A model generated the notes under the pieces. The model was given only the letters and a program-made list of their open reading frames with translations. It had not been told where the DNA came from and searched no databases. This document shows positions 16,524-63,971 of a stretch of DNA of 64,000 nucleotides, piece by piece (the stretch's first letter is position 1; every line of letters starts with the position of its first letter). Both the position numbers and the translations under genes were made by a program. Origin of the DNA: Carpediemonas membranifera BICM (taxonomy: Eukaryota > Protista > Fornicata); contig JAHDYR010000024.1 of NCBI GenBank assembly GCA_019828565.1, positions 194,534 to 258,533 on the forward strand. The letters are read 5' to 3'.

Positions 16524-16535
16524 TGCTCCCTCCCG

Positions 16536-31953: not shown

Positions 31954-34900
31954 CTAAACAATCGGTCTCATGTCCTCTACTCGCTTATAGACAACCTTAC
32001 ATTTGCTGCAGAGGGGAACGATGTACAACTTGCCATCAATGGTGTACTGCACTTCCTCAGAGCAATGCTCACAGTACCACCAGTGACAGCCTCGGCAGCA
32101 AAGAAGAGTAGAAGCCTGTTCTTCTGCTTTCTTCGTGTTCTTGGATCTTAGGCCCTTTTTGCACGCCTGGCACTTGTTGCTGAGCCGGTAATATAGCACG
32201 CGGGACAGTAGTCCTTCTTGCCCTTCGTCCTGACACATTGCTCGTGCAGGAAACCTTTGCAAGCACAGCATCTCCTGAACGTAGTGCCGTCTGGATTGAA
32301 GAACCACTCGGGGGTACCACACAAAAGACATCCAAATAGCATTTTGCGCTGATGAAGGCTAAGGAAAGTCGTCTTACATGTCTCGGGTTCGGTAGGCGGG
32401 TCTCTCACACGGGTCTCTGAGACAAAGTCGTTGATCAGGACCTTAATACGGTCAACAACAGCATCGGACACGTTGTTAGACACCTGCTGCAGATCGTCGT
32501 CACCAAGCCTGGGTCGCTTGGCTTCCTCGTCGTCAAAGACGATCTTCTTCCGAACCGGCACCGATCGATCTGTCGTTGACTGAGGTGTGTCTGCTTCATC
32601 ACCAACACCAAGTGAAGACAGTTGCGTAGTCGACCGTATCGGTGGGATCTCTGCCTTGATCATCGTAGTCGGGGTCGATTTGACCGTTGCCTTTTGCTTG
32701 ACAGGCTTATATCTCACCCGGTTGATCACAGGCAAGTTCTCAAGGCTGATTGAGTCGGAAACATCGTTCAGTCCAGCATCTGAGAGAACTTCTGAGAGCA
32801 TCTGGCGGAACTCGGCATGGCAGGGCTGACTACGGACAGCAATGTGCTGCATGACAGAGCCATTGTACTCCGCAGAGGGTCTAACTGCTGTTATAAACGT
32901 AGTAACGCCGACAACAGTCGTCCGCCTGACCTGTTCCCGGAGTTCAATTGACTTGAACCCAGGGCATTCGGCGGCGACCCTGCGCTGGACCTCCAGAAGT
33001 ACCTTATGGATGTCGCGTGCACTCAAGTCGAGGTCAGTTGCCTCGTCGTCCTCAAATACTGAAGAAACAACGGCTGTAACAAATGAACGACGGAGATTTG
33101 CGAGCTTACTGTTGCCATACTGTCTGATGGGGGGCGTAGCAGTAATAGGTTCTGACGTGGGTTTGACCACGATTGACCTTCGGTCCAACTATGCGGATTT
33201 CCCCAAGTAAACGAATTCTCTCTTCAGTTCTAGAACTAGTGCATGAGTACTTCAATCAACACCGTTACAGGTAATTACCCCACTATCAAGCTGAAAGATG
33301 CAACCATCGAGAGTATTGACGCCTTTGAGCGTATGGGCAGGATTTTCCTTGCAACGAACAGCAAGGTTGCTCCCACGGACTTCTTGTCACTCGAAGACAT
33401 CACAGAACTTCAAGCACAATACCCCGACGTCGATTTCACGAGAGCTACCCTTGATCAACTCTCCACTCTGATGCGCAAGCTCGTAACTCCTGACAACGTC
33501 ATCGACCTGCTAGATAACCTAGCATCTCTCTCTCTTGACTGGGACAGTACCCGTAATGTCCCCAACGGCACCGCCATGGGTTCTATCGAGCGAGCAACCC
33601 GTGTGCTGGTCGCCAGCTTCCGAAACCGGATGCGTCTCTTCGACTCCCTTCCTCCGGGCGAGGACCTCCCCGAGGCCGCCACGGACGAGGAGGTATCCTC
33701 CAGACGTCACCGCTTTGAGCAGCTCTGTAGCAGACTGCTCATCGACGCTCCTCCAGCGGCCTAAGGCCCTGAAGACTAAGACGAGATGGATCTCGCTCCT
33801 ATGGGACGATGACTCCTTCGACGATACAGTCAAGTCGGCGGTCAAGGCGGCTAAGTTCCTTGACCGCCAGGGGTTCCCCCCAGGGGCCCGAAGGCCCACG
33901 TCCCGGCTCCAGCCGGCCACGTCAAGCGTGTGGGCCGAGGCCCTACGCATCCTGCCAACAGCCAGCGCCCTCAGGGCCCCAACCTCTCCAGACCTCAGGG
34001 TCAGCGCCCTTCGGGCCAGCAGGCTCCTCAGCCTCTTACCAGACCCTGCAAGTTTTGTCAGGGCTGGCACAAGGACTACCGCTGCCCTCAGCACCCGAAT
34101 TTCGCCGCTGAGGAGCGCCAGGCTCAGGCCAACGCGGCCCAGACTTCGTCTGCCGGTCCCATGACAACCACGGCAACTATAAATGGCCGTGAGTATTCTT
34201 TTACTGTTGACACTGGAGCAAGTATATGCTTTATGAGCCAGAAGGTTGTACGCCAGCTACCCAGGGACGCTGTATCAGTTGACACTGGAGAGTGGATCAC
34301 TGTGACCCTAGGGGATAACCACAAGGTTCGGACGAACCAAGTAGCTACGCTCACCTTCCGTCTAGAACGGCTCGGCCCAGTGCCCATTACGACGACCTGG
34401 AAGTTCTATGTGCTTCCAGGTGAAGCCTTTAAGGTCCTATTGGGCTGTGACCTTCTTAGGTCGCTCAAGTTCATCGACGATGAGACACTCAACTTCAACC
34501 TCGAGAAGCTAGGCTCAGAGGACGAATCAGAGTGGGTTCCATTCACTCACAGATACCTCGACGAGGATCTGAACACAGCTGAAGTGGAAGAGAACCACCC
34601 GGATATTCCGGACTCAGCGATAAAGCCCCAGCTCGAAGAGCTCGTGGCCGCTTTCCCCGATATTTGGGAAGAGTCTCTCCCCGCAGAAGGGTCTAACCTG
34701 GAGGAGATGACTATAGAGCTCGTAAACGAGCGGGACATTGTCCAGGCGAGAGCTAGAGGCCTTGCCGACGCGACAGCGGCGCTTGTAGCGACCGAGCTCG
34801 AGGAACTCTGGAGATCTGGGATTATCCGTGAGTCTCGAGGCCCTTACAGTTCCCCCATAGTGGTGGTGAAGAAAGGTCACAAGGGCTCCCAGAAAATCAG

Positions 34901-37604
34901 ACACTGCGTAGATTACAAAGAGCTGAACGACCTAACGATCAAGGACAAGTTCCCGATCCCAAATGTTAGACATTTCGTGGATCGCGCGGCAGGCTGCAAA
35001 TATTTTGCAGGCCTAGACCTAAGGCAGGGGTACTATCAGATGAACATGAGTGAAAAGGATATTCCTAAGACCGCGTTCGTTACCCCTGACTCGTACTTCG
35101 AGTTCACTAGGTGTCCTTTTGGTCTGACGAACGCTCCCTCAAGGTTCCAGCGTGCTATGCAGCGGGCCTTTGCGGAAATCCTCCATAAAGGAGTCGACAT
35201 ATACCTTGATGATATCATGGTATATGCTCGCTCGGAGGACGAGTTCGTCGCCCTGATGGAGAAAGTCTTCTCCATCTTCCGCGAGTACAAGCTACGCTTG
35301 AAAGCAGGCAAGTGCAAAATCGGCACGGACCACGTGGAGGCCGTAGGCTATATCGTCTCTGAGAGAGGGAAGCAGCTGGCTCCATCGCGTGTACAGGCGA
35401 TCTGGGATATTCCCGTCCCTGAGACGGCTAAGTCACTCCAGAGGGTGCTAGGTTCATTCAACTACGTTGCGCAGTTCATCGAAGACGCTGCTCGGACACT
35501 CCGTCCCCTGAACCACCTACTCACCACCGCCTTAAAGGTCAAGGGCTCACTCTCCGACCTTTGGACGGACGAGCATACCCAAGCTTTCGAAGCCTACAAA
35601 GCTAAGCTTACATCTGACACTGTTCTAAGCTTCCCTGACATCTCTAAGAGATGGATCCTCGAGACGGACGCGTCGAATGAGGGTCTAGGGGGAATCCTGT
35701 ACCAGGAGGACAGTGACGGCGGAAATCGCCAACTAGTGAGTTTCTTCGCAGGTGTCCACACGCCGGCTCAGTCGCGTTGGCCCACATATGAGCAAGAACT
35801 CCACGCCATCATCTACTGTCTGACTCGTCCCGACATGGCACAGCTTTTCCGTCTTAAAGACGAGATCGAGATTCATACTGATCACCAGAACTTAGTCTAT
35901 CTCTTGAAGAGAAAAGAACTTTCAAAAAAAGCTGCTCAGATGGGTTATGATTCTATCAGACTACAATTTCTCCATCACGCATATTGCGGGTGAGTCAAAC
36001 AAGATGGCGGATATGCTGTCGAGGGATATTCCTTCTGGTAACCAGGAACAAGCGAACCTGCTAGACGTGGGGGAAGCGACCCTGGGACCATCCTTAGAGG
36101 AGGTTCGGGATGACCAGGCCAAGCAGCCCGAGTCTACTAAGGAAGGTTGGGTGAAACTCGACGGAGTAACCCTGGTGGACGGCGTTTACTTGAAGGACGG
36201 CGTCCCCATTATACCAGAAGGCGATATTCGCTCGCGGTACCTCAAGGTCGCACACCAGTTCCATAGTGGAACCAACGCTACGTACCAGCGCCTGAGGACC
36301 ATGGCCTATTGGCCAGGCATGTTGCAAGACTGCAAGCGGATTGTTCGCACATGCCCGATCTGCCTTAAGGCGAGGATCAAGAACTATCTGCAGCCTGAGG
36401 CTGGGTCGTCGACTAGAACGTCACCCTGGGGAGACCGTAGCGGTCGACTCCATGGGACCTCTACCGAAGGATCAGAGGGGCGCCCGCTACATCATTGTAG
36501 CGACGGATATGTTCACGCGATACATGGAACTCATTCCGGTAGCGAGCATCGACGGAGACACCGTCGCGCAAGCCCTATGGGACAACGTATTCTCGAGGCA
36601 CGGGCTACCTAAGGAGCTCCTGTCAGACAACGGACCAGAATACGCAAACCAGATAGTCAAAGCGTTGACGGACACCCTACGGGTCAGCCATCACTTCACG
36701 ACACCTTACCACCCACAAAGCAATGGGCTGGCGGAGAGGCGTAACGCCGAGGTAGCAAGACACCTAAGGTGGATGGCTCTCTCTATCGCTCCTAAGGACG
36801 ACTGGTCGACCCTACTTCCAACAGTACGGATGATAATCAACGGTACACTGCAGGCGGCCACGGGATTTACCCCCCACGAGCTGGTCTATGGCCACACACA
36901 CAACATAATGGACAGTACTTTGTGGTCGGAAGAGACGCTAGGCGTCTTCGACTACAAAGGATTCTACGAAAACCTTAAGGTCACCCTGGCTAACCTCGAA
37001 GAGGCGGCAAAACAGGCAGTAGGGCCTCACCAGAGCCCGATCGAGACCACAGGCTTAGAGCCAGGGGACTACGTTCTTTGGAAGAACGAAGCCCCTCAAA
37101 AACTTGACACACCCCACACAGGTCCGTGGAAGGTGGTAGAGGTACTCCCCTAACAACAGAGCTAAGCTCATGTCGCTAAGCGATAACCGGCTCAAGGCTA
37201 CGCATATTGACAAGCTGATGAAGTTCGAGACTGATGTTAGCGAAGACCTTATGAGGCAGCTAGCTGAGTCGGATCAGGAGCAGTACAGAGTCGAAGATAT
37301 AGTATCTATCGACTGGAAAAAGGGTTCAGCCCGGGTCAAGTGGCTAGGCTACGATGAATTGACCGACGAGCCTCTCGGTGCCATAAAGCACCTCGAGATC
37401 ATCAAGCGTAAGGCACGCAAAGCTCGTAAGTCCCTCGACAAGTACTAAGTACCCTCTTTTCCCTTCCTTTAGCAGGTGGGTTTTTCTCGTCGAAGGGGGT
37501 AGTGACGTGGGTTTGACCACGATTGACCTTTGGTCCAACTATGCGGATTTCCCCAAGTAAACGAATTCTCTCTTCAGTTCCGGTACAGACACTTCTGAAT
37601 TCAT
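31954..37604 (-). CDS. PHD/zinc-finger protein disrupted by LTR element A
   Basis: Removing 33153..37580 restores MNSEVSVPEPITATPP. The C-terminus has CLLC...CCAC...HEQC...CPAC (C4HC3) plus a second Cys cluster after a frameshift. Confidence 0.8.
33153..37576 (+). mobile_element. Ty3/gypsy chromovirus A, full length, 74-bp LTRs, GTTC target duplication
   Basis: TG...CA LTRs at 33153..33226 and 37503..37576 (1 mismatch); PPT GAAGGGGGTAG; gag, CCHC, DTGA protease, YLDD RT, RNase H, integrase and chromodomain (VKWLGY). Confidence 0.95.
33243..37448 (+). CDS. gag-pol of element A (several single-base frameshifts)
   Basis: ORFs 33243..33764, 33930..35993, 35947..36612, 36341..37153 and 37170..37448 in PR-RT-RH-IN-CHD order. 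Confidence 0.9.
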
Positions 37605-38067
37605 GAGAATTTCTATCCAAGCTGTTTACGTTGTTACATTTGTCTATTTACGTAAACTCCTGGCATTGACAATACCTAAAACTGCGACATTTGTCGATCA
37701 TGATTCGAGCAACTAGCCACCAAAAGGTAGAAACGGTAACGTCAGGGCTCGTGGAAGTTGCCAAAGTACAAGATTCTTACCAAATAATCCGAAAAACTGC
37801 TCAGGGCTTGCGAAAGGAAGAAGAAATCAACAAAAAGGTGAATGACACAGAGTTTCTGCTGCAAGAGATACGCGATTTGTTTATAGATGCCATACAGACG
37901 ATGAGGGACAAGTAAAAATGACATTCACTAGCTTTGCTTCTCATTTCACATATTCTTGTGAAATATGTGAAATGTGAAACAGATTCTAGTGAATCTCATT
38001 TTTTCTTGCACTTTTTGGAGTATCTCCAGGGTATCTCCCGGGAGACTCTAGCCATTCCTACAGTATG

Positions 38068-38109
38068 ACCTCGAGCTCCCCTGGACGCTCGAGACCGACG
38101 CTTCAACAG
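38068..38109 (+). mobile_element. Host Ty3/gypsy element G0, fragment 1 (RNase H start)
   Basis: Encodes LELPWTLETDAST and continues in frame at 47488 (TVAAGGVLWQ). Confidence 0.85.
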
Positions 38110-41100
38110 TGTAGTGGTCACCTGACCCGTATATATTTAGGCCATATTTACCACTAGGGTTCGACCCTATTTAAACACTTCGCATTGATTGTTGTTGTTC
38201 TGTGCCACCACAGTAATATTACTATCTAGATGAACGTAGAACAACTATCAACTTTCCTGGCACCCTATCTCACTAGTACGAAGCCTAAGGCATGGTATTC
38301 ATTCCGGGAAGCCTTCATTGCCCATTACGCACGAAACGCCGCTTCCAAGCCTCTGATCTTCGATTACGTCGCAGCGACGGTTTTGAAGATCATGTTCCTC
38401 GAATGCCCGGACCTCGAAGACCTTATTACTCGTGCCCGTGAGGTCACACAGCAACCCCGCGCTGCGCCTAGGGACCCCCTTCTGTTCCTCGCGCCCCCTG
38501 AGTCTGACACTGATGACGACACCGAGTCTGACACTGATAGTTCGGTCTCCGACGAGTCCGAGCATCTACCCGTTCACACACCCGAGACCCCTAACGACTT
38601 CAACAAAAGATTTATCTCAATGGTGAACGACATCTTCGGACCCCTCGACCGTCAGGACGCGCTCGACCGATTTGACTCGATTACCTTTGACACCGCCAGC
38701 AAGAACGTTTATGAGTCCATGCTCTACTACACGTTAATCTACCAGCGGACACTCGAAAACTGCGCCTCTGTACCCCCCGAAGCAGTCGAGCCTCGTAGCC
38801 AAATTCCTGAAGGGCATCCGCAATGATCGCTTACGTGAACGCTGTAAGACCTTTGAGGATAAGTCCTCCATCGCCAACACCATGCGCGCCGCTCTCTCCC
38901 AAGCCAAGAAGATGCAGCAAGCCGAGAAGGAATCCCACAAGTCGCGGAAGAAGGACGTAAATTATAGGTCCTACGCGCACGATTTCCTCGCTGCTACGGT
39001 TGAAGAGTACTTAGACGCAATGTCAGCCGAAACGCCTGAAGACGATCAAGCAGAACACCGCCCAGTCTTCAAAGTCAGACTGCACGGATCCTCCGTGCGC
39101 GCCCTCTACGACACAGGTGCCACCGCCAACTTCCTCCATGAGGCGAAAGCGAAGTCCCTGGGCCTCACCCCCATTCCTGAGTGCCACAGGGTTCGCCTCA
39201 TGTCAGGCCAACTAATCAACACCTCCCAAGTGGCCTACGATACTGTCCTGTACCCTTCTGTGACAGGTAGACCCCTCTCTGTACGCACAAAGTTTATCCT
39301 CATCTCACTCGACCATTACGATGCGATCATCGGGTTCCCACTCCTGCGCAGCGCGGGACTGATCGAGATACCCTCGCCTGACCCGACTCCGTCAAACCAG
39401 AACGACGACGACGAGATGTTCGAAAACGAGGTCGAGAGAACAGCCCCAGAATATGTGCAGTTTGCAGAAGCCAGCCAAAGGATTGTTGAAAAGTTCCCAG
39501 GCCTATTCGGGGACATTTCCAGCCCGTCCAAGCTCCCAGCATTCTCCCTGAAGACCAAGAATGACCAGGTCATCAACTGCTTCCCATATCGTCACGGCAA
39601 GCAGGTGGAAGATGAGGTTAATCGCCAGGTTGAGGAGCTGCTTGCTCTGGACGTCATCGAGCCTTCGGACTCAGCCTTCAATAACCCCATCGTCATGGCA
39701 AAGAAGAGAGGCAACAAGCTTCGCCTCTGCCTCGACTTTAGACGGCTATGCCGTGTTACGAATGAGTTTTATGCAACCAACTCCCGCAGTTTAGGGTCAC
39801 ACTTCCCCCCATGCGGACGCATTAACGGCGCCCGGAACTGCGGAACTTCTTCTTGGCGGCGGCGAACGCGGCTTCATGCTCTGGATGAGCGACGAGGTAA
39901 TCATCGAGAGCCGCTAGCTGGTCATAGTACCGGTTATAGGGTACATAGGAGTCTTCGTCGGGTGTGAGGCCTTCCCAACGGATGAGGAGCTCCAATGAGC
40001 CGTTCTTCTTCTTCTTGTGACCGACGATCTCCTTGACGGGCTGTTCGCCTTGCTCGAAAGCGGCGATCCGCTCGAGCTCGGTGTCGGATAAATCGGTCTC
40101 GAATCGGACCAGTCTGTCGGCGTGGACCGTGCTGACGCATCTTGTGACGAGGTCACGGACGCGGTAGGTGTTCGGGTGTTCGCCCTTCCCCTCCATGCGG
40201 AAGGGTCCGCGCAGGGGGGTGTAGATCTTAGCCGGGGGCTTGCCCGGGTAGCGCAGGAGAACGTATTGTTCTCTCTCCCACGCATGAGTGTCTGCTGTGG
40301 CCTTGGCCTTGCGCGCCTCGTACGCGCGAATCTTGACGCGGGCGAGGGCTTGTAGAGCGGCTACGTCCTCCTGGAAGCGGACAATCTCACCTTCATCAAC
40401 GCTCCCAGGGGTGCAGCTCTTCGTGGCGTTTGCCAGAGCGATCGGGGCGACCCGTAGCGTCGATTCTTTGCCGAACAGCAGTTCGAAAGGGGAGCGACCG
40501 GTGGTGGCGTGGCGGGTAGAGTTGATGACGTGTTGAGCGAGCGGTAAATAGGCGGGTCAGTTGCCGTCCTCTGCGTCTAGGAGGAGCGCTCTCATGCGAG
40601 ACATGATCGTGCCGTTGAGTCGTTCAACGACTCCGTTGCTGGCCGGATGGTAAGGGGTTGAGAACCTGTGCTGAAGACTGATGATGGCGTTACACTCGGC
40701 AATGAGGGCGTTACGGAATTGAGTGCCCTGGTCGGTTTGAATCTCCTTTGGGACTCCGAACGTGGACCACACATCCAGCATCGCTGCTGCAGCCTCTTCG
40801 GCCTTTGTAGTAGCGACCGGACGGAGGATCGTGAACTTGGAGAAGACATCCACGATCGTGATGATGTAGGACATGCCGGCCTCTTCCGGAAGGGGGCCTA
40901 TTGTGTCAAGCTGGACCGTCTCGAAGGGCTTGAGTCGCTGCGTGGAGTGCCACTTCGTCTTCTCGCGGGCAGGGGGTCTAACCTTCTGGCAGACAGCGCA
41001 ACTTCTGAGGGTCTCCCGGACGTCCGATTTCATGTCGGGCCAAGACTGCCCGGCGTTGCGGAGATTTTCCATCGTCTGAGCGACGCTGAAGTGGCCCTGT

Positions 41101-44100
41101 GCACCGGCGTGGTCCTGGTTGATGAGGTGACGGTGAGAACTGGAGACCTGTTCGATAGCGGCCTTGAGGTCGTCTCGGTCCTCTGGGACGCTGCTAGGAC
41201 GGGACAGCGAGTCGGCGACGACGTTGTGGACACCCTTGATGTGGGCGATGGAGTAGGGGTATTCGGTCATTGTCAGGCGCCAGCGAGTAAGCTTTTTCGT
41301 GCCCTCCTCGTCCGTCTTTCTCAGGAGCCAAATAAGGTTCCGGTGATCGGTTCTGAGAGAGAACGGCTTAATCTTAAGGAGGGCTGAGAACTCCGGTCGA
41401 GTTACACAGTGGATGATCGCGTAAAGCTCCTGTTCGACGGTCGACCACCTTTGCTGAGTCTCGTCCAAGGTCTTGGAATAAAAAGCGAGGGGAACCTTCT
41501 CAACTCCTTCGCCCTGCCAGAGGACCCCGCCGATCGCTACTGAGGAGGCATCGGTCTCCAAGGTCCAGGGCTTGTCTAAGTCTGGGAGGGCGAGCGCCGT
41601 GTGTTCGGTGACCAGGTCTTTCATCTTAGCGAAAGCGGCGTCCTGCTCGGCGCCCCAGGCCACGGGGGACGACTTCCCCGGAGAGCCCTTAAGCAGCCGG
41701 TTGAGAGGTGCTGCGGCGTCGGCGAGATGGGGAATGTAATTCGACAAGTAGTTGAACTTGCCGAGGGATCGACGGAGTTCCGACGTGGTGGTCGGAGGAA
41801 AGAGGTCGCGGATGGCCTGGACTCGAGCGGGGGCAACGGATCTGCCCATCTCGTTAACGATGAAGCCGCACACCTCAACCTCGGAGAGGCCGAGGGCACA
41901 CTTGTCGGCCTTCAGTCTGACGTTGGCCGCCAGTAGATGATCGAAGAGATCCGTGATGGCGCTCTTGAACTCTTCCTCCGTGTGCGAGTAAGTGAAGATA
42001 TCGTCGACGTAGGCTTTGGAGCTCTTGCAGTCTTCCAACACCTCGTCCATCGCTCTCTGGAACTTGGCCGGGGCATTCTTGAGCCCGAAGGGGGTACGAA
42101 GAAACTCGTAATGACCGCCTGGGATAGTGAAGGCGGTGAGTGAGACGCTGTCGGGGTCCATACGTTGCTGCCAGTAGCCGCTTCGGAGGTCGAGCGTGCC
42201 GAAGAGTGAGCAGCCGCTTGCCCTCATGGACGAAGGAGCGGATATCTGGTGTCGGGTAGCGATCGTCTTCGGTGGCTTCATTCAGAACGTTATACGCGAC
42301 GCAGAACCTGTCCTCACCGTTCTTCTTCTTCGCCATCACGTGTGGGGATGAGTACGGCGAGTCACTTGGGCGGATGACTAATTGTTGGAGCATCTTGTCG
42401 ATTTCAGCGGCGGCGCTGGACGCTTGGGAACCCTTAAGGGGGCGTGGTCTTGCCTTCGGGAGCCTGTGGTCGCCAGGCTTCAGGGTGATCTTGTGTGGAC
42501 GCAACTCGCTGCCGTCCTCTGGCAGCTCGCCGAAGAGCTCGCGGCGTTCGTATAGGAAGCCTTCGAGCCACTTAGTGAGGTCTGGATTGTCATCGTAAGG
42601 GATTCGGACCTTCTTCCACTCGTTATCAACATCAATCTCATCTGTGCAGGAGTCGAGATACGGGTGTGGAGGCAGATTGTCGTTGTCGGAGATGGTGGCG
42701 GATGACGGGATCAGCAGTCTGTCGTTCATGAGGTAGCCCAACCTTCTGAGGAGGTCGCGGCCGATCAGGACCTTTCGGCGTTTGGCGCGGATCACCATCA
42801 GCAATGCGGTGGCCTGCACGGTCTTGCCATCGATAGACGGGAGAGTGATGTCGACCTTTGCGGCCTTACCGATGGAGATGACCTCGTCGCCGGCGTCGAA
42901 GAGCTCGACTGAGGTGTCGATGAGCTGGTAATTCGGGACCTTCGCTAGTGCGGGCTCCGAGATGACTGAGACGCAGGCTCCGATATCGAACTTCGTCTTG
43001 ATTTGGACACCGTTGATCGTGGCCGGGACGTTGATGGGGTCGTTGTCGATCTCAACAGCCCCCACCTCATAGACGTCACCTTCGTCCTCGGACTCGGCGT
43101 CATCTGAGGCGTTGTTGTCGACTTCATGGACGTCGCGCTGGCCGCGCGAGTTGCGAAGCTTTGAGGAGTCCCTCAGGAACATGTTGCCGGCCCGACGGTC
43201 GGACTGCGTACCGCTGGTCTGCTTCTGGTCGTTCTTCCGCGGCTGAGAGGAGCCGGAGGTGCCCTTGGACTGGTTGTCCTTCTGCCGTGCGAGGAACCTG
43301 CATGACTCTGTCGTATGGTTACTGTTCCACCCATGAGACTTGCACCACTTGTTGAAGTGCTGTGGGATGGCATACTTGTGCTTGTCTTTGAACTGGAGAT
43401 AGGGATCGCTTGTATGGGGCAGTACTGTCGGCTTTTTGCTTGCCAGGGGCGCGACGGCCGCTGTCTTTCTGGTCGGCGGGTTGGGATGTTACCGCGAACG
43501 CCCGCCACGGGACAATAACGCGTTCGTCGTGATCGACGTCGAGGTTCTCGAGGCGAGAAAGAAGATCGTCGATTGACTCGGCTGGGTCCTCGATGATGTC
43601 CTCGTAAAGAGCCTCGGCGTCCTTGCTATAGCCCTTGAGGAAGATCGACCCCAGTAAGCGCTCGGTCGAGTTGTAGGTTAGTGCCTCGATGTCTGGGACG
43701 CATGGATCGTAAGCGTTGAGGATCCTACGTAGCTTGAAGACGGCGAGTCGGTGCTCGACGGCTGGGCCGAAGAATCTAAGGCCGGATGCCTTGTCGCGCA
43801 CCATCTTCAGTCTCGATCCCATGTCGAGGGTCGGTAGGAGCGTATAAACGATGTAGGGGATGATCGCCTTTGCCTCGGCGCGGAGGTAAGCGTAAACGTC
43901 GGGGAAATCAGCACGCTTTGGCCAGGCGGCCAGGTCGGGCTTCTCATCTATGGTGGGCTCCGGGACCTTGTCAGAGAAATCTGGGAGTGTCATGTCGGTC
44001 CCGTCAGGCACGGGGACAGTCGGGGTTGCGGCGCTGAAGAGGTCGGACCATCTGTTGGCCGCGGGGTCCTTCATGTACGAGGTGATGAATGTCCTGGCCT

Positions 44101-51000: not shown

Positions 51001-51271
51001 CTCTCATACACACACTGCTTTAGTTTCGGAGCCAACGTCCATAAACTGAAGGAGTTCTGAACATTGTTTCACCAATTGTGTGAAACTGGTGAAATTGTGA
51101 AATAGTGTTGAAACGGCCAGAGAAGAAGAAGGAACCCCGGCAGCGCAGTTGTAGCTGCTCTTATAGAGCTATAGCAACAGCCAAATTGTCTGATTTATCT
51201 CACAGACCGTTGCGCATGTACCTGCCTAGTTTTTGTACAAAAATCTTGTTTTTTTTAAACTCTACAGAAAT

Positions 51272-53812: not shown

Positions 53813-53934
53813 TGAGTAAAGGAGTTTTATTGGTCAGTACATCCCATTTGGTGTGTTTCCCCAACTACCAATTTTTTTTTCAACATTGGTAGTTTCACAA
53901 TTTTCACATTACGTCACTTGTTTGGTGAAAAACA

Positions 53935-54860
53935 ATGGAAACGCCACTTCCGACATGGCTGACGATGAATTTATCGCAACACAAGGCCTATATTCAATAT
54001 GTCAAGCTTTCAGACAAGTCTGAGCTCTTGCCGTCTGTCAGGGCCTTCTTCAACAGAGATCTGGCGACTTCGAACCTCGACTGTCTGAACTACTCATTCG
54101 TCATGTATGTCAGACCCACTACACTTCTTGTTAACACAGTCTCATCGCAATTCGTGGGGTTGAGATGGACAACATCAAGGCTGCATGCCTTCTCTTCCGC
54201 GAGTCGTACAGGGAGGGGCAGACCCTGAGCGGACAACTGCACCAGGAGCGGTTTGTCATCGGCTTACGGACAGCCGTCTCCTGCAGAGGTCTTGGGTTCG
54301 CGAGGGTGCTTCTTAGCATAGCATCTGCCGAAGAACTCGTCCGACTGCAGTGCGACAAGCGACTCCAGGACATGTATGCGTCCTTTGGCCTCAAGGAGTC
54401 ATCGGACCCGTCGCAGGTCGAGCAGCTGGTGGACACGGGGGGCAACCCACTTGCCATTGTCACGATGGAGGGCACGATGGGTCCCAACAAGTGGACCAAC
54501 CTCGGCAAGAGCCTGACAGAGTGCTGTGGGATGATAATGCAAGGCTCTACGTTGATCCGCGTGACCAACCATGGTAATAGACTTGATCAGCACGCTCATG
54601 GGATGCCTGCTTCCGACAAGAGGAGTGTTGACTCGTTCGTGGAACGCACCCGTGTGTCCGTGCGCCGTGAACGTGCGGCAAAACGGCCTAACGTCACCCG
54701 CATCAGGCAGAAGTTGATGATTATCCGCCATTACAACCTTCGTTCTTTCACGCTGGTCAAAGAGATCAAGGAAACGAGGACCGAGATGCGTAAGGAGAAG
54801 AAAGCCAACTTCTGGGACAGTGAATGGAATATTTCCGTTGAGGATGACGAAGAAGTGTAA
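53935..54860 (+). CDS. Hypothetical cargo protein with a 35-nt intron at 54105..54139
   Basis: Removing GTATGT...CACAG joins ORFs 53935 and 54165 in frame. Confidence 0.75.
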
Positions 54861-54884
54861 ATGAAATGAAAATAAAACAAGAAT

Positions 54885-55589
54885 TTATAGCTCCTGTGCC
54901 GAACACTCTAAGTAGTAATTCATGATGGCTTGGTATACCTTGCGACGCAGCACATCACGCGATTCTGCCTCAGCACGTTCCGCATTCCGCTTGGCAATGA
55001 CAGAAGTGAGCTGACTGAGTGTCTTAGCCTCCTTCTTCAGAACTCTGGTGGGTCTGGCGAAGATGAGATCCGCGTCGCGGTCACGGCAAGGCTTGCTCAG
55101 GACGAGCTTGACGTCATCGACCGTCACACCGCACGATGAAGCAGCGAAGGCATGGACCTTAGCCCGGTAGGCGATGGGAATGCGGTGAAAGGCATCATCC
55201 ATCTCGCGGACAGTCGCGATGAGTGGGTCGTCCGTGTCCAGCTCATCTGTCTGGGCGTCAAGACTGAGGAGAGCCTTGAAGCGGTGACGCTTGTCCTCAT
55301 CACCGCCTCCCTGCCACTTGCGGCTGATCTCTTCGACCGACTGGAGATTGCCGTAGAGCTTGTCCTTCTTCAAGGAGGCTACTTTCATTTTAGGGACCTC
55401 GGCGGCAAACTTCTGGCTGAAGTCGACAACCCATCCGTTTGCGCGGGTAATATCGTCATTATTAAGGAGGAAATTGCTGATAAAGGTCTGAACGATCTCG
55501 ATGGGCGTCTTGTGAGCTTTTCGGGCTGTTTTCGTGGACTTGTTGGACTTGCTCTGGCTCTTTTGCTGCGCTTTCTTGCCAAGAGCCAT
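54885..55589 (-). CDS. Hypothetical cargo protein with a Lys-rich N-terminal tail
   Basis: Clean 234-aa ATG-initiated ORF, convergent with the previous gene. Confidence 0.7.
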   Translation of the reverse strand: MALGKKAQQKSQSKSNKSTKTARKAHKTPIEIVQTFISNFLLNNDDITRANGWVVDFSQKFAAEVPKMKVASLKKDKLYGNLQSVEEISRKWQGGGDEDKRHRFKALLSLDAQTDELDTDDPLIATVREMDDAFHRIPIAYRAKVHAFAASSCGVTVDDVKLVLSKPCRDRDADLIFARPTRVLKKEAKTLSQLTSVIAKRNAERAEAESRDVLRRKVYQAIMNYYLECSAQEL

Positions 55590-55973
55590 TCTCCTCTCCT
55601 TTTGAGCTTCAGTGGCCTGTATATTGCCTTGTTTACTTCTTTGCCATCGTTGTTTCCTTAAAATGCGTGTGAAAATGTGAAATGAACTGTGACTCTCGAC
55701 ATTGCTGCGCAGCTATGGTATTCCAACGGCACAGAACGGGTTTATAGCATGCATATGATCCATTCTGGTGCCTTTATCCTCTATAACCAACATCAGTCCA
55801 TCAAAAATGAATCTTGCAACAGAATACTCATCCACACGCATCGAGAACGAAAAAGAAGCATATAACCAACATCAACAACCTAATAGAAGGCTGCATGCAA
55901 GCGTAGAGCTCTCCTAGTCAATTCTTCATTTTCACCACCATCGATCTCCACGTCAGGATGAAACCGTGCGCCC

Positions 55974-56130
55974 AAAAGCTCAGAGATGCCGTTATAGATG
56001 ATATAACGACGTCTCTGAGCTTTTCAGCGATTTCAGTTTCTGGCCATGGATAAGCTACAAATCCTGTCAATGTTGTCCTCAGAGGACACTGAAAAATTTA
56101 ATCTGTGTCCTCTGAGGACCAAATTGACAA
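55974..56130. promoter_or_regulatory. Two long inverted repeats in a divergent intergenic region
   Basis: AAAAGCTCAGAGATGCCGTTATA/TATAACGACGTCTCTGAGCTTTT and TGTCAATGTTGTCCTCAGAGGACAC/GTGTCCTCTGAGGACCAAATTGACA. The structures are visible; the regulatory role is inferred. Confidence 0.5.
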
Positions 56131-56327
56131 AATCGAAAATGGAGCGATGAGATGTCCATCGAAAAACGGCCAAAACAGCGCAGGTGCAGAATGAGCTGAA
56201 AATCGGCCAAGGGGTAGCTCTTGGGTCTTTATGGCTGATCGGAGGTATTTACATGACAGCTGGCAATATTTATTGAGATAAAACGTATTTCATTTTTCGA
56301 GAAAGTCTTCTGAGGACCAAATTGACA

Positions 56328-58504
56328 ATGGTTAACGAAGACATCATCTCTCTCGGCAAACTGAAGGAGACAATGCTTGCTCCTGACGATTCTGGTATGT
56401 CACTTTCATTTTCACGGTCCTATTTACACAGATGATTCATTCCGTGCATACGACGCCCTTTCGTCCACAAAGAGCCGTATAACCTGGCTGCAAGATCACG
56501 GCATCGTCTCTGATGACCCTCTGTTCTTCGTTTGCGTCCGTCTGATCAGCATTCGTACGATCAACGTTGTTTTCGGGTTCCCGTTGAAGCGCACTTTAAG
56601 CCAGCACGTTCACGACTATGGAGTTGCCAAACTACGCGCGATATGTGACGCAACTAACCGCAACTACCTCTGCGAGGTCGACTTTGACTCTCCCGACACA
56701 ATTGAGGCATTCCGACGGAAGTTTTGTGACCACTTCACCGCCAAATCTGTTCATAAGGCTCTAGTCGGCGTCGACTCGCTCCCCTGTTGAGAAGCAGGTT
56801 GAGATTTACCGCGCATTCCACCTTGTGTTGCGCCACAAGGACTCGAAGAAACTCGATTCTCGTGTTCCGGCAGGCCAATTTGGCCAGTTTATCGCCCACG
56901 CCCAGCTCAGCAAGAAGCTGTCCTTCGCTGGCTCAGAGAAGCTGGCCGAGGAGTTGGCTAAGATCGGTTCGCTCGATCCGTCAGCTCCTCTGAAGAGGAA
57001 GATCGCTCGTCTTGAGAAGGAGCTCGCCTCATCGACTGCTGCTCTGATGAAGGTCCAAGAGGAGTTAGTCCGGGCCCAGGACCACTCAGCAGCAGCCACC
57101 AAGCCTTCTGCCGTCGTTGCTGCCCCTCAGCCACTTCCGGTTGTCGACGCAGAGTCCACGACACACGATGAATTTTCCGACACTGACGAGTCCGAGTCTG
57201 ATGACCACTCTGAACCGGCCGCCATGCAGGGTGACGGCGTTCCTTTGCCCCAGACTGATCAAGACATCGACGTAGAGTCTGATGTGGACGACACAGACAC
57301 CGTTGGTTCTCTCCTTCAGCAGCTAGACGACACCATTGCAGGCCTTGATGATGTCCCTGAGTCTGTGCGCTTGTTGGAGCAGTACGAGCCCTTGATAAAA
57401 CGGCTTGCTGAGGAGAGGGAGGCGAGGGAGGCGCTTGAACAGGCTAACAGAGAGTCTGAGGAGTCCCAGAAGAGACTTGAAGCTGAGTTAGGTCAGCAGA
57501 AGGCCGAGGATCAGGCGATCCATCAGTTTACTCAAGCAGAGTTGGCACGGGCGAGTGAGGCTGGGCTTGAAGCGCTCGCCGATGAACTCGAGGACAACTG
57601 GGCTGAGCTTGTCAGGCGCGCCGAGGAGGCAACAGTGGAGCTTGACCGCTACGTTCCTCTCGCTGCCTTGATGGTACTGTTCCAGAGGAACAATGTGACT
57701 GGAGCCTTATGGACTCGGATCAATAGCACCATGATGAGGTACGGGGGCCAGAAGTTCATAACGGTCCCACCTCTCGACCTCGGTCTGTCGCCAGAGATGA
57801 AGGCTATCATCAAACAGCACTCTCCGACGCCTGCCAATGTTCCCCCTATGCAGATATACTTACGGAGCGACGTTGATAGGCAGAAGTACATCGACGTGGA
57901 GTACGACAAGGTAGGCGAGCGAGTTCTCAAAGATCGTAAGAGTTGGCGGAAGATTGCAGTCAACCCGGATGGATTGTGCATCGGCTACTGCCTGCAGAAG
58001 GTTGAGAATGGCGAGTTCGACAAGAAGTTTGCGGCAGAGGAAGTGGCAGCAGTGAGGGAGGAGGTGCGCGCCTGGGGATTCTCCGATGCTGGCGAGAGGC
58101 TGAGGCTTGAGACGTCTAACGTGTTCGTGCCCACCCTGATGTTCGACGATGCCACTGATTGGTACAGCAACTTTGGTGTCATGGCCTGGTCAGCTCTGAA
58201 GAGCAAGACTGTAGTCGTTATCTGGGTCAAGATGTTGACGTACCATGACAAGTATATTGTGCGGATGCATTTGACGGAAGTTTATGAGTCCGGCATGGTC
58301 CGGCGTGGATCTGATGAAGATGTGGCTGCGGCGCAAGCTATTGTGGTCGTCAAGGATGAGCATGCGACGCTATTTGTCCGCAAACGTTCAAAGGGTGGTA
58401 AGAGAAAGGCTCATACGACTTATATCAAGCGCAAGGCAGTCGATAAGGATCGCGAAAAGAGAGTTGTTGATGCCGAGGACGTTAAGCGTGGAGTTCCCGA
58501 GTAA
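56328..58504 (+). CDS. Acidic/coiled-coil protein with a C-terminal OTU-like cysteine protease; 37-nt intron at 56395..56431 and a frameshift near 56783
   Basis: VNPDGLCIG (D-G-x-C), VREEV, DWYS..VMAWSAL...VVVI and VKDEHATL (His) follow the OTU pattern. Confidence 0.7.
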
Positions 58505-58530
58505 AAAAAGAGATGTTTTGACATTTTAAT

Positions 58531-59341
58531 TCATTTCTTCCGCTTCTTGAGTGCCGGATACTGCTCCAGGAACCTTGTGAGATAGTTTGGATGAGAAATG
58601 GGCAGACTCGGGAACCTAGCAATGGTTAAGACCTCACCCGCATCAAAGAAGATCTCGCCGTAACTGATACGAAGAAACTCTTCGGCCTGAATGACGTTCG
58701 TCGACTCAACCGCAAGGACTGGAAGGTCCTTGAGCAAACGGTTGGTGAACTGGCAGTTGGTGTCACTCTCACTGTGGTTGATGAGGTGTACACCAATGCC
58801 TTCACCTTCGCCGGCGTCGACGTGAATGTTGCTAGCGTCGAATGAAATGCTGTGTAAAGGCATAATGAACAATGAACAAACACCATGTTGCTGTTATTCG
58901 CGTGGTAGTCCTCGTCGGACACAATCCTACCGGCGTAAATGCCGAGGAGCTTTCCGGGCTCAATTGCGGCAGTTGCAATGAGGCCTCTACCCACGTCCGT
59001 GTGGTCGGGAGCCAGACAAGGCTGCACCTCAACGGCAATGGAGGGGTGGGTCAGCCGGGTGGATAACCAACTCGGGGGGTTCGAGGGGAGGAAGGTCCTT
59101 CTCGGCCTCTTTAAGCTCCCCTGATCGACTCCTCGGGAGTGTTTGGGTAGATCGCGGCGACCAGATCCGGATGCAGTGCCTGAGTATGCACAACGGATTC
59201 AATGATGGAATCTTCGCTTGAGGAATCCTCCTGAGAATCATTTGAAGGCGCAGACGGCGGCGTCTTGCCCGCAGTGGACGTAATGGGTATTCTGATACCC
59301 CCAGGCTGCGGCTTTGGTGGGAGCGCCTTTCTTCTCGCCAT
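58531..59341 (-). CDS. SET-domain lysine methyltransferase; 32-nt intron at 58850..58881 and frameshifts in the N-terminal part
   Basis: SET motifs GRGLIATAAIEPG, YAGRIV, VDA, HLINHS and EEFLRISYG. Removing the intron (GTTTGT...CACAG) restores the frame. Confidence 0.88.
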
Positions 59342-59527
59342 CTGATTTTTTTTTGCAAACGGACACGCGGTATTTCTCGGGATTGATGGGGCCGTCTCAC
59401 ACCGTAAAGGACACACATACAATATCTTATCTGTAACACCAGAATGCTTGCTTATTGTGGTCCATATCCTTCCCTATAGCTGGTTCGGCCAACTACCAGT
59501 GTTGGAAAAAAAAGTGGTAGTTGCCAA

Positions 59528-60553
59528 ATGGAGAGGAAATTTGGCAAATTCGGTACCAGACGCATCAGCGACCATCCTCTCACGTATGAATGCGTCTGTG
59601 GAATCACTAGGCCGCGTTCTGACCTTCGCAACCAGGGCCTGAAGGAATATGACGGAATCAGGTACACGCATGACTGCCCCTTCACCCTGAGCAAGCTTGT
59701 GAACCGCCGCATCGTTATCCTGCTCGAGCCAGTCCATGGCTTCGAAGCACCTACTTGTGCGAACCCGGTCTTCACTGTCACCGGGCTTGCTGGCTCCGAG
59801 GGGTACCACAAGCGCATGAAGGCCATCCTCGATCTCGTCAGCGACGAATGGCTCACCACGGTTGCCGTCAGTTTCGTCTCGACGACCCACCTCGGCTCCA
59901 TACTGCAACAGTTGGCTGCAGAATTCGCCAATTTCGAGACATTCTGGGTTGTTTCTGGCCACAGCGAGACCACAACGTCGAGAATGATCGTTAATGCGAG
60001 CGCTAACGAGTTCCTGTACCTTCACGATATCGTACAGATGATCCTCTTCGCTTTCCGTGAGCCATCCCTCGTCACCACCAGCCGGGTTCGGCTCATCTAC
60101 TTCGCCACCTGTACCGGAGCGGACAATAGCGAGTTCTCTCTGCTTAAGCAGTCCATTTCGACCCAGGCATACGAGCATACGTGCATCATTCTCACTCCGG
60201 AGAAAATGCTTGCCAAAGAACTCGTCCTGCAGGACTGCTTTTGGCTCTACCGCACTACATGCATGGACAACCCGCTCCACTTCGTCTCGCGTTACTTCTC
60301 CGGCTATGGGCTCGCACCTGGCACAGCAGGGAGACGGGTTATCGCGAATGGATCAATGTCCATAACCCCGGGCGCGATTGAGATCCTCACAGCCACTCAG
60401 TTCCGCACGCCAATCCCTCTTCCCGAGATGGTCGACCTTGTTTCTGAGGTACTTGCATATAGACCACTGCAGAGATCTCCGGCGGATGTTATGGCCTCGC
60501 GCTACATTACTGAGATGACAGTTGCGCACAGAGCGGCACTGGAAGACACTTAA
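59528..60553 (+). CDS. Caspase/CHAT-fold-like putative peptidase
   Basis: WVVSGHS ... RLIYFATC matches the strand-GH / strand-xAC dyad pattern of clan CD peptidases and is conserved in the paralogue at 30900..31916. Confidence 0.65.
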   Translation: MERKFGKFGTRRISDHPLTYECVCGITRPRSDLRNQGLKEYDGIRYTHDCPFTLSKLVNRRIVILLEPVHGFEAPTCANPVFTVTGLAGSEGYHKRMKAILDLVSDEWLTTVAVSFVSTTHLGSILQQLAAEFANFETFWVVSGHSETTTSRMIVNASANEFLYLHDIVQMILFAFREPSLVTTSRVRLIYFATCTGADNSEFSLLKQSISTQAYEHTCIILTPEKMLAKELVLQDCFWLYRTTCMDNPLHFVSRYFSGYGLAPGTAGRRVIANGSMSITPGAIEILTATQFRTPIPLPEMVDLVSEVLAYRPLQRSPADVMASRYITEMTVAHRAALEDT

Positions 60554-60576
60554 AGTTCAAAATCTCCCTATTTAAC

Positions 60577-61786
60577 TTACTCAATTGGCTTCATATCCGC
60601 CACCTTCTGGTAGACAGTCATACACTGGTCGCAGAACCTGACACGATAGTCCTGGCCGTCGAGATGGAACTCAGCATAGCTGAAGTGTTTCTCTTCGCAG
60701 AACCAGTTTAGGCACGCCCGGCAGACGCCAGTGTCCTTTGTCGACTTGTCTCCGTCCTTGATACACGCGTGACATCTGTTAGACCTTCCTGCCAGACTGC
60801 AAGCTGCGCAAACCTTTCTGTTCTTACCATCAATCCTCTTCTCTCTGACACACTGAAGATGCATGAACTGATGGCAGAGATAGCACGTTTCATACTCGTT
60901 TCTTTTCATGTTTGGGTTGAAGTACCATTCAGGTGAGGGCACAAACAGCGCATGCGAACAGTAACTTACGCTGATATAGCTTCAGAAACGTCGCTTGCTT
61001 GAGGGCGGGGACCTTATCGTTCATTTCAACGGCCTTGGGTGACTGCTTGAGGAGATCAGTGACAGTTGTGGAGAGTGAAGCCGTCACCATCGCGGCAACC
61101 TCCTTCAAGTCAGCCTCTTCGAGCCTCGATCGCTTCTGAGCAGGCTCATGCATCTGCGCATCAAAATTAAGCTTCTTGACGGGGGAATCAGGCTTGATGG
61201 TAGCCAAGTCAGCTCTTTTTCTGAGCTTTGGTACCAATGTTGTCACTGGAGTCTTTGTGGGTGTCTCTGCGGGTGTTTCTGCTGGGGTACGTGGCTCAGG
61301 CTGGAGCTTGCGATGCTTGATCCTGATTACAACGGCTGGAGGCCATTGAATGCCGGTGCAAGTGATCAGACTGGAGACATCGTGGAGTCCAAGTCCCCGA
61401 AACAGCACAGACATCCTGTTTCTAAACTCCTGCAAGTGTTCAGCTGCATTTGCTCTGTCTCTGACAACCAGGTAGGGTATCTTTGTGCCAATGAGCTCTG
61501 TGCCACCCTTTCTACTTGCCACAAATGCCTGAATGGGCTCAGTAGTCGTGCGCCTGACGGAGTTTGCAATAGCAATCTTGCGAAAGCCGTTGCAGAGGCC
61601 CGATATCACATCCTGCATGCCAAGGAGAGCGCGATGAACGTCAGAGGTCGTCAGACCGATAGTTGGGATGTCCGCGACGTCGAAAAAGCATTCCAGGAAG
61701 CTAGTCACGAACAGCCGGCGGTACTCTGTTATGATCTTGTTATTATCACTTTGAATAAGCAATGAATGGTTATGCAACATCAGCAC
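60577..61786 (-). CDS. PHD/zinc-finger protein (frameshift near 60938; start uncertain)
   Basis: CAVC...CYLC...HLQC...CAAC (C4HC3), then CHAC...CRAC...C...CDQC; paralogue of 31954..37604. Confidence 0.82.
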
Positions 61787-63971
61787 CTACCTACGAATCA
61801 CAAGAATGCCCCTAGCACGTCGTATGCAAGCAAAAATGAGACTTACCCGTACCTTCCGCACGTTTCTCTACGTTTCACAAACGTTGGTGAAACGTGTGAA
61901 ATAGTGAAAAAGATACGGGTGAATCTCATTTTTTCTTGCAGTTTCTTGTGCAAAAGGGTGTTTATCCTCCGTATATCCCCGGATTAACTGGCCATTCTAA
62001 CAGTATGCGAAGACCTGATGCAGAAGGGAGTTGTGGCCCTCGATCGTAGACGCGTGTACGATGACATCATCAAGGTAGCACTCGACCCCGCGGCCCAAGA
62101 GTGGAGCTAAGATCCGCATCATGCCTCGCTGGAAGTAGGAAGGCGCGTTCTTGAGACCGAAGGGGACTCTAACGAACTCGTACAGGCCGTTGTGCGTGGC
62201 AAATGCAGTCCGAGGAACAGCTGTTGCGTCGAGGGGGAACTGGTGGTAGCCACTGCGCAGGTCAAGCGTGGTGAAGTACTTGCTGCCATTCAGGCGAGAC
62301 AAGATGGACTTAATGTTCTGCAGGGGGAATCGGAAGTCGCGGCTGACTGAGTTGAGGAGGCGGTAGTCTACGACCATCCTATGTTCACCGTTCGTCTTTG
62401 GCACGACGAAGCAAGGGGCGGAGTAAGCCGACTCCGATAGGCGGATGATGCCAGCCTCAAGGAGGGCCTCGACCTCTCGATCGATGACCTCAGTCATGGC
62501 CGGGGAGAGCCGGCGAGGGGGAACGTGGGTCGGAGTTTCGTCTGTGACGGCGATCTCCATAGGCTGAACCTTGGCAGGCTCACGAGGGATGGGACCGAAG
62601 ATGTCTTCGAACTCGCGAGCGAGGGCTGCGACGTTTTCATCGAGCTCGATCTGGCCATCTTCGTCAAGGGGTGTAACCTCGCCGAGGTCCTGAGGCTCAG
62701 TCGCGGGAGGAGCCAGTAGGTTGAACGTTTGGATCACGTCGAACCCAAGGATGAGGGGCTCACCGGTGTTGAGGACGTGGGCGCTGATAGTACCTCCGAC
62801 TGAGTGGGGAGACCTGTTGACCTTGATGTCAAGGAGCGTGCGATGGGCAGACGTGGCGATGCCATTGGCCGTGCTTATCTTGAGCTCATCAGGGATCATG
62901 ACCAGGCCCAGAGACTTGGCCAGCACTGGGCTGATGAAGGATGAGGAGGCGCCTGTGTCGACCAGGGCGTCGACGCGGTCGGTGCTCTGGGGAGCAGGGG
63001 AGCCGACGGGCGCGAAGGCTCGTACGTTGGTGCTGAGGCGCATGACTGGTCCGCTTGTTGCCATCTTCAGAGAGATGGGCGTCGTCCGGCGGCCCGTAGC
63101 GAAGAAGCCGGGCTTGGACTTGTTGGGGCAGTCAGGCCTAAGGTGGCCGGAGAGGCCGCATCCATGGCAGACAGGCTGCGGCTTGGCAGGGGTACCGGCA
63201 GGCTTATGGTTGTCTGGTTTGTTGGATGGGAAGTGGGGAGCAGGCGCTGCGGTAGCGTGAGGACGAGTGGGGTGGAAGCTCGGAGGCGGACGTGTGGCCT
63301 GAGGGCGCGGGACCTCGGGCTGACCGAACTCGGCGATGGTGCGCTTGGCCTCAGCCAAGGTCTCGACCTCTTGGAAGGCGGCACGCTTGGCGTCGGCGAG
63401 CGTCTCAGGTTCGGAGGCCTTGACCCGGCGGCGCAGTGAATCTGGGGACAGTCCGCGGATGAAAGTGCGGCGTAGTGTCTTCTCATCGGGGAGGTAAGTG
63501 GAACAGAGGTCCTCGACGCGGTCGAACCTGTCGAGGTAGGCGAGCAGAGCGCTGTTGCTGGCCGTCGTGGAGGACATGGCGGTTGCTTCCAGCTTAGACA
63601 GAACGGCCTGAGTGCTCTTGGGAGCGAATAAAGCGGAGTAGATCGCCGACAGGACGTTTTCATCTGGAAGGTCGTCAAAGTTGTCAATGCGAAGGCGGAT
63701 CAGGCGTAAAACACGGCTGGAAATGAGCATACGGACAGATAGTGCTCTGTCGTCGGGAACTTGGGCGGAATAGGCCTCGAACTTGTCGTTGAAGCTGCAG
63801 AAGGCCGTTTCGGAACGAATGTCGTTGAGAAAAGGGGCTGAAATCGTTTGATAGTCCATGGCGGTGAGTAAGTAAGCTTACTGTGGCCAAATAAAGAGAA
63901 CTAATGACGAAGTGAGGTTTATTCGAAACCCGATCAAGGGCAAAAATGGTTATAACTAAAATTGCCCAACA

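Follow-up and report, generated by a model that had tools for sequence, protein, structure and literature searches.

Four Ty3/gypsy elements with a palindrome at the primer-binding position

The window analyzed here is a 64,000-nucleotide (nt) stretch of the genome of the protist Carpediemonas membranifera BICM (GenBank assembly GCA_019828565.1, contig JAHDYR010000024.1, positions 194,534 to 258,533). It contains four Ty3/gypsy elements, here called A, B, C and D, all of which encode protease (PR), reverse transcriptase (RT), RNase H (RH) and integrase (IN), as detected with Pfam, between two long terminal repeats (LTRs). At the primer-binding site (PBS) position, next to the 5′ LTR, each element carries a perfect palindrome. 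This feature is real, is clade-wide among the relatives of the four elements and is under strong symmetry constraint. LTR pairs, target-site duplications (TSDs) and polypurine tracts were read from direct repeats in a self-comparison of the window, independently of the palindromes. The features, in window coordinates, are as follows.

33153-37576, + strand: element A, whole (LTR pair)
33153-33226, + strand: element A 5′ LTR, 74 nt, TG..CA; direct repeat with 37503-37576, 1 mismatch; TSD of 4 bp
33226-33237, + strand: palindrome of element A in the place of the PBS, spanning the final LTR base and 11 nt beyond; gag start codon (ATG) at 33243
33243-37484, + strand: element A gag, PR-RT-RH-IN and weak chromodomain-like tail, frameshifted (Pfam, translation)
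37485-37576, + strand: element A 3′ LTR and, before it, a polypurine tract with AG at its end (repeat ends)
38110-47487, + strand: element B, whole, with element C inserted in its RT (LTR pair)
38110-38212, + strand: element B 5′ LTR, 103 nt, TG..CA; identical to 47385-47487; TSD of 5 bp
38212-38223, + strand: palindrome of element B in the place of the PBS; gag start codon at 38230
38230-47366, + strand: element B gag-pol, RT split by element C (Pfam, translation)
47367-47487, + strand: element B polypurine tract and 3′ LTR (repeat ends)
39747-44611, − strand: element C, whole, inside the RT of B (LTR pair)
44557-44611, − strand: element C 5′ LTR, 55 nt TG..TA (preferred parse) or 53 nt TG..CA; identical to 39747-39801; TSD of 4 bp on the TG..TA parse
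44545-44558, − strand: 14-nt palindrome of element C in the place of the PBS; gag start codon near 44536
39820-44536, − strand: element C gag, PR-RT-RH-IN and chromodomain (Pfam)
39747-39819, − strand: element C polypurine tract and 3′ LTR (repeat ends)
48098-63971, − strand: element D, whole, split in its RT by an 11.8-kb insertion (LTR pair)
63882-63971, − strand: element D 5′ LTR, 90 nt, TG..CA; identical to 48098-48187; TSD of 4 bp
63871-63882, − strand: palindrome of element D in the place of the PBS; gag start codon near 63859
48198-63859, − strand: element D gag-PR-RT-RH-IN-chromodomain, RT interrupted by an insertion with terminal inverted repeats (TIRs) at about 50187-62007 (Pfam, repeats)
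48098-48205, − strand: element D polypurine tract and 3′ LTR (repeat ends)

In all four elements IN follows RH, which is the gypsy and not the Ty1/copia domain order, a polypurine tract precedes the 3′ LTR, and the TSDs are of 4–6 bp (ambiguous between 4, 5 and 6 bp for C). The LTRs are very short and, with 1, 0, 0 and 0 mismatches within the pairs of A, B, C and D, nearly identical, so the insertions are young. The pol of B has a 100% identical database protein, labelled Carpediemonas membranifera. Directly before the TG of the LTR, the polypurine tract ends in AG in A–D (37501-37502, 47383-47384, 39802-39803 and 48188-48189) and at many other loci of the clade; this AG may be a 2-nt overhang trimmed by integrase at the U3 end. 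The TSD of A (33149-33152 and 37577-37580) equals the first four bases after its 5′ LTR (33227-33230), for which the chance is 1 in 256.

The initial annotation of the window had reported four perfect palindromes that differ in their letters while keeping the same symmetry and position, and all four are present as described. In A, B and D the palindrome consists of the last A of the LTR and 11 further nt, and its center lies between +5 and +6. The direct repeat of C extends two bases beyond CA, and its end can be parsed as TG..TA with a 4-bp TSD, as CA plus T with a 5-bp TSD, or as CA with a 6-bp TSD and one mismatch. We prefer the TG..TA parse because A, D and the related locus L079 have 4-bp TSDs and the LTRs of three other families of the clade (L001, L025 and L031) apparently end in TA. 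On this parse, all four palindromes take in the last LTR A and are centered between +5 and +6. Among the 63,988 positions of the window there are 18 palindromes of at least 12 nt; the placement of four out of four at an LTR edge has a p of about 1e-11 with 10 allowed centers.

No conventional primer-binding site was found beside the palindromes, as the initial annotation had also maintained. In none of the four elements does TGG occur within the 12 nt that follow the LTR, and the gag ATG, at +17 to +23 after the LTR, leaves no room for another PBS. The longest Watson–Crick match of LTR+1..20 inside the LTR is 3–5 nt, which speaks against a Tf1-type complement. A second inverted copy downstream, of the CHSeq2 type known from GalEa elements, could be aligned in A–D only with 3–4 mismatches of 9, and a polypyrimidine tract of the Skipper type is not present after the 5′ LTR, the sites being mixed-base palindromes. 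An Rfam search of window positions 26000-64000 returned a tRNA-Thr gene only, so no known ribozyme lies at the palindromes. This tRNA, the one compared, matches the palindrome sites over 4–6 nt at best.

The palindrome recurs at independently placed LTR ends

A search with the RNase H motif common to A–D gave 547 relatives on metagenome contigs, and the 80 best of these were analyzed. Viral contigs added 1 + 69 loci; 62 of these (L089–L150), apparent plant pararetroviruses, were left out save for three RT fragments kept as outgroup. A single-protein scan of the viral contigs found no relatives. To guard against circularity, blind LTR ends were defined as the point where the 3′ LTR copy diverges into flanking DNA. 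Such ends were obtained in eight metagenomic families (L050/L055, L060, L066–L075, L074, L079, L019b, L012/L023 and L019a), the 3′ LTR copy of L019b having a small duplication just before its end. A palindrome of 10–20 nt covers LTR+1 in all eight, and in 12 of 12 families when A–D are included; the background is 18 palindromes at 6825 CA sites in coding regions. In a thirteenth family, L035, the LTR end was located at the palindrome via L043, with only 7 nt of flank. Non-palindromic divergence points in L030/L031/L033, in the L035 family (some 400 nt away from the start of the LTR) and in several loci without CA were dropped as internal, those of L030/L031/L033 and of the L035 family because they lie within gag reading frames.

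AT-rich sites turn palindromic more easily, and for two sites shuffling of their own composition gave p values of up to 0.10, as might be expected if the palindromes arose by chance or through assembly artifacts. However, all 12 blind sites are palindromic, with a worst single shuffle p among them of 0.021, the same result comes from independent assemblies, and the distribution of the palindromes matches the tree. We regard chance or artifact as practically negligible.

Altogether, 47 sites in 39 families were tabulated. The palindrome covers LTR+1 in all 39 families and pairs the last LTR base in 37 of them (38 with C re-parsed), which ties the edge of the duplex to the start point of the minus strand; in 27 of the 39 the palindrome helped to place the LTR end, so that these families are not an independent test. 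The palindrome centers lie at +4 (6 families), +5 (22), +6 (10) and +7 (one, element C on its CA parse). Across the clade there are about 30 different palindrome sequences of 10–20 nt, and the combination of changing letters with constant symmetry and position noticed in A–D extends to the clade as a whole. The palindromes are strongly AT-rich across the clade (for instance at the L003, L016, L020/L021, L025, L031, L039 and L079 sites), and identical cores occur in distant families (B and L008; L003, L016 and L060; L025 and L079). At L001:2728, L025:4092 and L031:5379 the LTRs apparently end in TA, followed by the palindrome; these ends are not fixed by flanks.

TGG occurs in +1..12 at none of the 47 sites. 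Complements inside the LTR reach just 3–8 nt over the 47 sites, compared with 9 nt in the positive control L088, and a CHSeq2-like second arm at no more than one mismatch was found at one site of 47. A long hairpin formed by LTR, palindrome and inverted LTR does not occur in loci L001–L088.

The PBS position is also the annealing site of second strand transfer. The symmetry might accordingly have its role at the level of DNA, either during plus-strand transfer or by giving the U5 end its shape for integrase, with priming a separate matter, and the pairing of the last LTR base in most families agrees with this. Strand transfer, however, needs just the complementarity of two DNA strands, which any sequence provides; a protein dimer reading the palindrome would keep its letters, which vary freely; and the missing primer is left unexplained. 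We consider a DNA-level role improbable.

Palindrome-bearing elements form one RT clade

RT trees were built with FastTree on 104 rows and with IQ-TREE on 60 rows, without named Tf1 or Skipper references. A–D and the palindrome-bearing loci form a single RT clade (IQ-TREE support 100/99; FastTree 0.987). Within it, A–D are spread over three different subclades and thus represent deeply diverged lineages, not recent copies. The 104-row tree has 59 in-clade locus rows, of which 48 contain the junction, all with a palindrome; the remaining 11, without an identifiable 5′ LTR junction, were left unscored, among them L045, which could be a miss. L065 was not counted, as it has an in-register palindrome but an implausibly short LTR. 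The named members of the clade are Carpediemonas, records tagged ANDGO, presumably Andalucia godoyi, and one MMETSP transcript.

Outside the clade, seven of seven readable relatives have tRNA-type or Tf1-type sites: six loci (L027, L041, L059, L073, L076 and L087) have TGG sites, and L088 has a 9-nt Tf1-type complement. Loci L034, L085, L086, L072, L077, L082–L084 and the L022 group, also outside the clade, are without a primer-type call. Presumed classical chromoviruses (L087, L088, L034, Chara, Nannochloris and P0176) form a separate branch (100/98) on an unresolved backbone of the tree, and joining them to the palindrome clade was not rejected (p-AU 0.161).

The initial annotation had called the four elements chromoviruses. 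This label has partial support: the Pfam Chromo domain of C scores 26.4 bits, over the cut-off of 25.1, but that of D lies just under it (23.9), and A and B have weak matches (E 0.13 and 0.094). Many clade proteins have PF00385, and "chromodomain-bearing gypsy clade" is a safe name.

Sister elements differ by mirrored changes

Twenty sister pairs were compared, the sequences being metagenomic consensus contigs. In the closest pairs with any change, all palindrome changes are mirrored. L054 and L058, which are 96% identical and share 79 of 80 flanking nt, nevertheless differ at 4 of 10 palindrome bases, and these form two mirrored pairs. Two central bases are swapped in L042/L046 and in L050/L054, whereas in L016/L037 and L013/L039 the difference is a symmetric indel of 2 nt at the center. 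A rough comparison, based on consensus contigs and disregarding selection by way of G-U intermediates, favored copying over independent change by a factor of about 5600 for L054/L058 and of 20 to 50 for L042/L046 and L050/L054.

These changes are hard to reconcile with the idea that tRNA halves or other fragments of host RNA bind here as at any ordinary PBS, the palindromes being incidental. Half-tRNA priming exists, but in the plant-wide account of PMC6317226 it is confined to Copia among plant elements. A host RNA primer is fixed and would therefore fix the letters of its site, yet about 30 different sequences are all palindromic here, sisters differ by mirrored pairs, and the single tRNA of the window matches poorly. 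This explanation appears very unlikely.

Folding predictions gave hairpin energies of 0 to −2.1 kcal/mol and duplex energies of −5.6 to −15.8 kcal/mol for 27 of 27 sites. The central bases are symmetric in 12 of 12 blind families (p = 6e-8 if a 2-nt loop were free). Since the center of a hairpin cannot pair and yet stays symmetric, the symmetry appears to be read between two molecules or made by copying. The initial annotation had left a choice between fold-back and intermolecular pairing; the duplex energies and the mirrored centers favor the latter. In a fold-back, or snap-back, the RNA would be cut just past the palindrome and its 3′ arm would fold onto its own 5′ arm. A single RNA would then suffice, and a hairpin has been proposed for the GalEa elements (PMC5445492). 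Against this, the predicted hairpins are weak, the loop would be free although the center is symmetric in every blind family and mirrored between sisters, and a GalEa-type second arm is almost never present. We judge fold-back a poor candidate, on a par with a role at the DNA level.

Comparison with known priming systems

The initial annotation had suggested an undescribed priming mode, but a site of this kind has a precedent. GalEa Ty1/copia elements of fungi (Donnart et al. 2017) are described as being without a PBS and as having a 9-mer that is palindromic with the last LTR A (CHSeq1), with a second arm downstream; this Conserved Hairpin Site was suggested to replace the PBS, although no model fits (PMC5445492). 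The published description agrees with the clade in the missing PBS, the palindrome directly after the 5′ LTR including its last A, symmetry-keeping variants and the lack of an LTR complement. A palindrome that includes the last LTR A is found in A, B and D directly and in C on the TA parse. In one gypsy family of the clade (L066:2923, L070:125, L071:2634 and L075:156), the 9-mer after the LTR is the commonest fungal GalEa CHSeq1.

The two groups also differ. GalEa elements are Copia, whereas the clade is gypsy. The CHSeq2 arm is reported 12–41 nt downstream in GalEa, while none occurs at one mismatch or fewer at 46 of the 47 clade sites. GalEa elements mostly have two 10-nt palindromes according to the same account, in contrast to the variety of the clade. 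Finally, GalEa sites were modeled as an intramolecular hairpin (PMC5445492), whereas the evidence from the clade favors intermolecular pairing. In the literature searched (subscription papers, Repbase, GyDB and supplements being mostly outside it), no gypsy element with a palindromic PBS was found. A palindromic, tRNA-independent site is thus known once, in Copia, and was not found in print for gypsy.

Among gypsy elements, Tf1 offers a parallel. Self-priming of the Tf1 type has been described for Tf1, Tf2 and Tj1 and for the Tf1/sushi/Tcn1 group (PMC4600332, 10.1101/2022.12.06.519325, PMC6317226); RNase H frees the Tf1 primer by cleaving an RNA duplex of 11 bp between bases 11 and 12 (PMC7175516). 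As described, the Tf1 group resembles the clade in being gypsy, in its C-terminal chromodomain or chromodomain-like tail, in lacking a tRNA PBS and in having a primer site of about 10 nt by the LTR. The use of the element's own RNA as primer is demonstrated for Tf1 and only proposed here for the palindrome clade. In Tf1 the primer comprises nucleotides 1–11 of the transcript, which pair in cis as part of a structure with three duplexes, in contrast to the 3–5 nt of LTR complement in A–D, and the Tf1-type control L088 falls outside the palindrome clade.

Skipper elements, dictyostelid chromoviruses, have a polypyrimidine tract in place of the PBS, for which a novel self-priming was suggested (PMC5006619). 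In that account they are, like the clade, protist chromodomain gypsy elements without a TGG site or LTR complement. The Skipper site, however, is a pyrimidine run and not a palindrome, a word absent from the main text of PMC5006619. SM-Tcn1 is described as having no known primer (PMC2864245), and bivalve TRIMs as lacking a PBS (PMC6934838). The plant-wide survey recognizes three primer types, namely whole tRNA, half tRNA and cis self-priming (PMC6317226).

Palindromes near the 5′ end are also known as dimerization signals. Ty1 RNA dimerizes through PAL1 and PAL2 (PMC8396678), and the retroviral dimerization initiation site (DIS) lies in a hairpin loop (discussed in PMC5445492). Like these, the clade site is self-complementary RNA near the 5′ end that would pair two genomes. 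The palindrome might therefore serve dimerization or packaging only, with something else, such as a host small RNA or a protein, as primer. A symmetric center and a stable duplex are compatible with intermolecular pairing of any kind, and the Ty1 case provides a precedent. Yet, in the cited accounts, Ty1 and retroviral palindromes accompany a tRNA PBS, whereas in the clade the palindrome fills the PBS position itself and no tRNA site was seen; its left edge is fixed at LTR 0/+1 in 39 families, with gag beginning 17–23 nt after the LTR in A–D; and the fast mirrored change is left unexplained. We consider this the most serious of the alternatives, though still unlikely.

A proposed model of priming within an RNA dimer

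Our own interpretation, in which we place an evenly balanced confidence, is that the palindrome would be a self-complementary primer site: two element RNAs would pair, and after cleavage of one of them its 5′ piece would serve to prime minus-strand DNA on the second. A palindrome being self-complementary, another copy of the element RNA is able to bind the palindromic PBS. Two co-packaged RNAs would thus pair through it over 10–14 bp, as folding predicts. By analogy to Tf1, cleavage would hit one RNA of the pair close to where the duplex ends; the enzyme may be RNase H, as in Tf1. Our best guess for the site of the cut is the distal end of the duplex, because this leaves 8–12 bp of pairing. 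The cut piece, comprising R, U5 and the palindrome, would then prime minus-strand DNA on the U5-R of its partner, and plus-strand synthesis would copy the palindrome of the primer back into the PBS in each cycle. As the primer would be the element's own palindrome, recopied into the site, single mutations could become mirrored pairs. The mode would be Tf1-like self-priming, acting in trans within an RNA dimer.

Several points weigh against this model. A dimerization signal combined with an unseen primer predicts the same symmetry. Cutting both RNAs would remove the PBS from both templates, making second strand transfer hard, so that one-sided cutting or another route is needed. Several AT-rich cores are weak as duplexes (−5.6 to −6.8 kcal/mol), and a conserved flanking stem comparable to the Tf1 pretzel was not found (mean z −0.6 over 27 sites). 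In the L050 family the last LTR base is left unpaired. A simple heteroduplex model hardly doubles change at two adjacent central bases, so the copying step is incompletely explained, and recombination or assembly may contribute to the sister differences in metagenomic consensus contigs.

A stricter rule, by which the last base of the primer templates the terminal A of the LTR, fits 37–38 of the 39 families and was dropped since the L050 family fails it.

On a broader scale, and with a confidence falling slightly short of that in the priming model, the palindrome-bearing elements may constitute a deep and widespread protist gypsy clade with a fourth priming mode, dimer-primed and with a symmetric, self-rebuilding PBS, which the GalEa Copia elements would independently resemble.

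The way in which reverse transcription begins is a fundamental property of LTR elements and retroviruses, and the published record includes PBS-less groups for which it is unexplained, such as GalEa, Skipper and SM-Tcn1 (PMC5445492, PMC5006619, PMC2864245). The clade supplies about 30 natural variants of one symmetric site. It also turns the GalEa puzzle into a sharp test, because rescue by a pair of non-palindromic RNAs complementary to each other is expected under the intermolecular model and not under the hairpin. If the model is correct, dimerization and priming would be one step needing no host tRNA; the cis signals would be tiny, with LTRs of 55–103 nt and gag 17–23 nt later; and a PBS rebuilt from its own primer would drift in sequence while keeping its symmetry. 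LTR finders relying on the presence of a tRNA PBS would overlook the palindrome clade or rank it lower.

Genomic surroundings of the four elements

The insertion in the RT of D (50187-62007) is 11.8 kb long, with TIRs of about 45 nt and an apparent 2-bp CG duplication. Its open reading frame (ORF) at 51093-52937 has weak RAG1/Transib-like look-alikes (high-scoring, with low recognition), and an end of the TIR element was found with another flank in contigs from sequencing runs. The contigs of the two runs include none of the LTRs or palindromes. ORFs at 30675-33188 and 37580-38067, around A, resemble ORFs of the 11.8-kb element; in the self-comparison of the window, 31346-31732 is 70% like 59974-60360, and 37944-38067 is like 61873-62007. 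From these similarities, A seems to have inserted in a second, diverged copy of the 11.8-kb DNA transposon, with B adjoining the end of that copy.

Upstream, at 26436-30526, a DIRS-like element with RT, RNase H, a weak Dam methyltransferase match and, by eye, tyrosine-recombinase-like ORFs adjoins the tRNA-Thr gene (26338-26410). The region 8764-26357 holds tandem, near-identical RT-encoding units (a 4.4-kb repeat at 99.8%, with a spacing of about 8.2 kb) in which no LTRs were seen; they are probably non-LTR elements. Short tandem repeats with units of 12–15 nt lie at the start of the window (953-1861).

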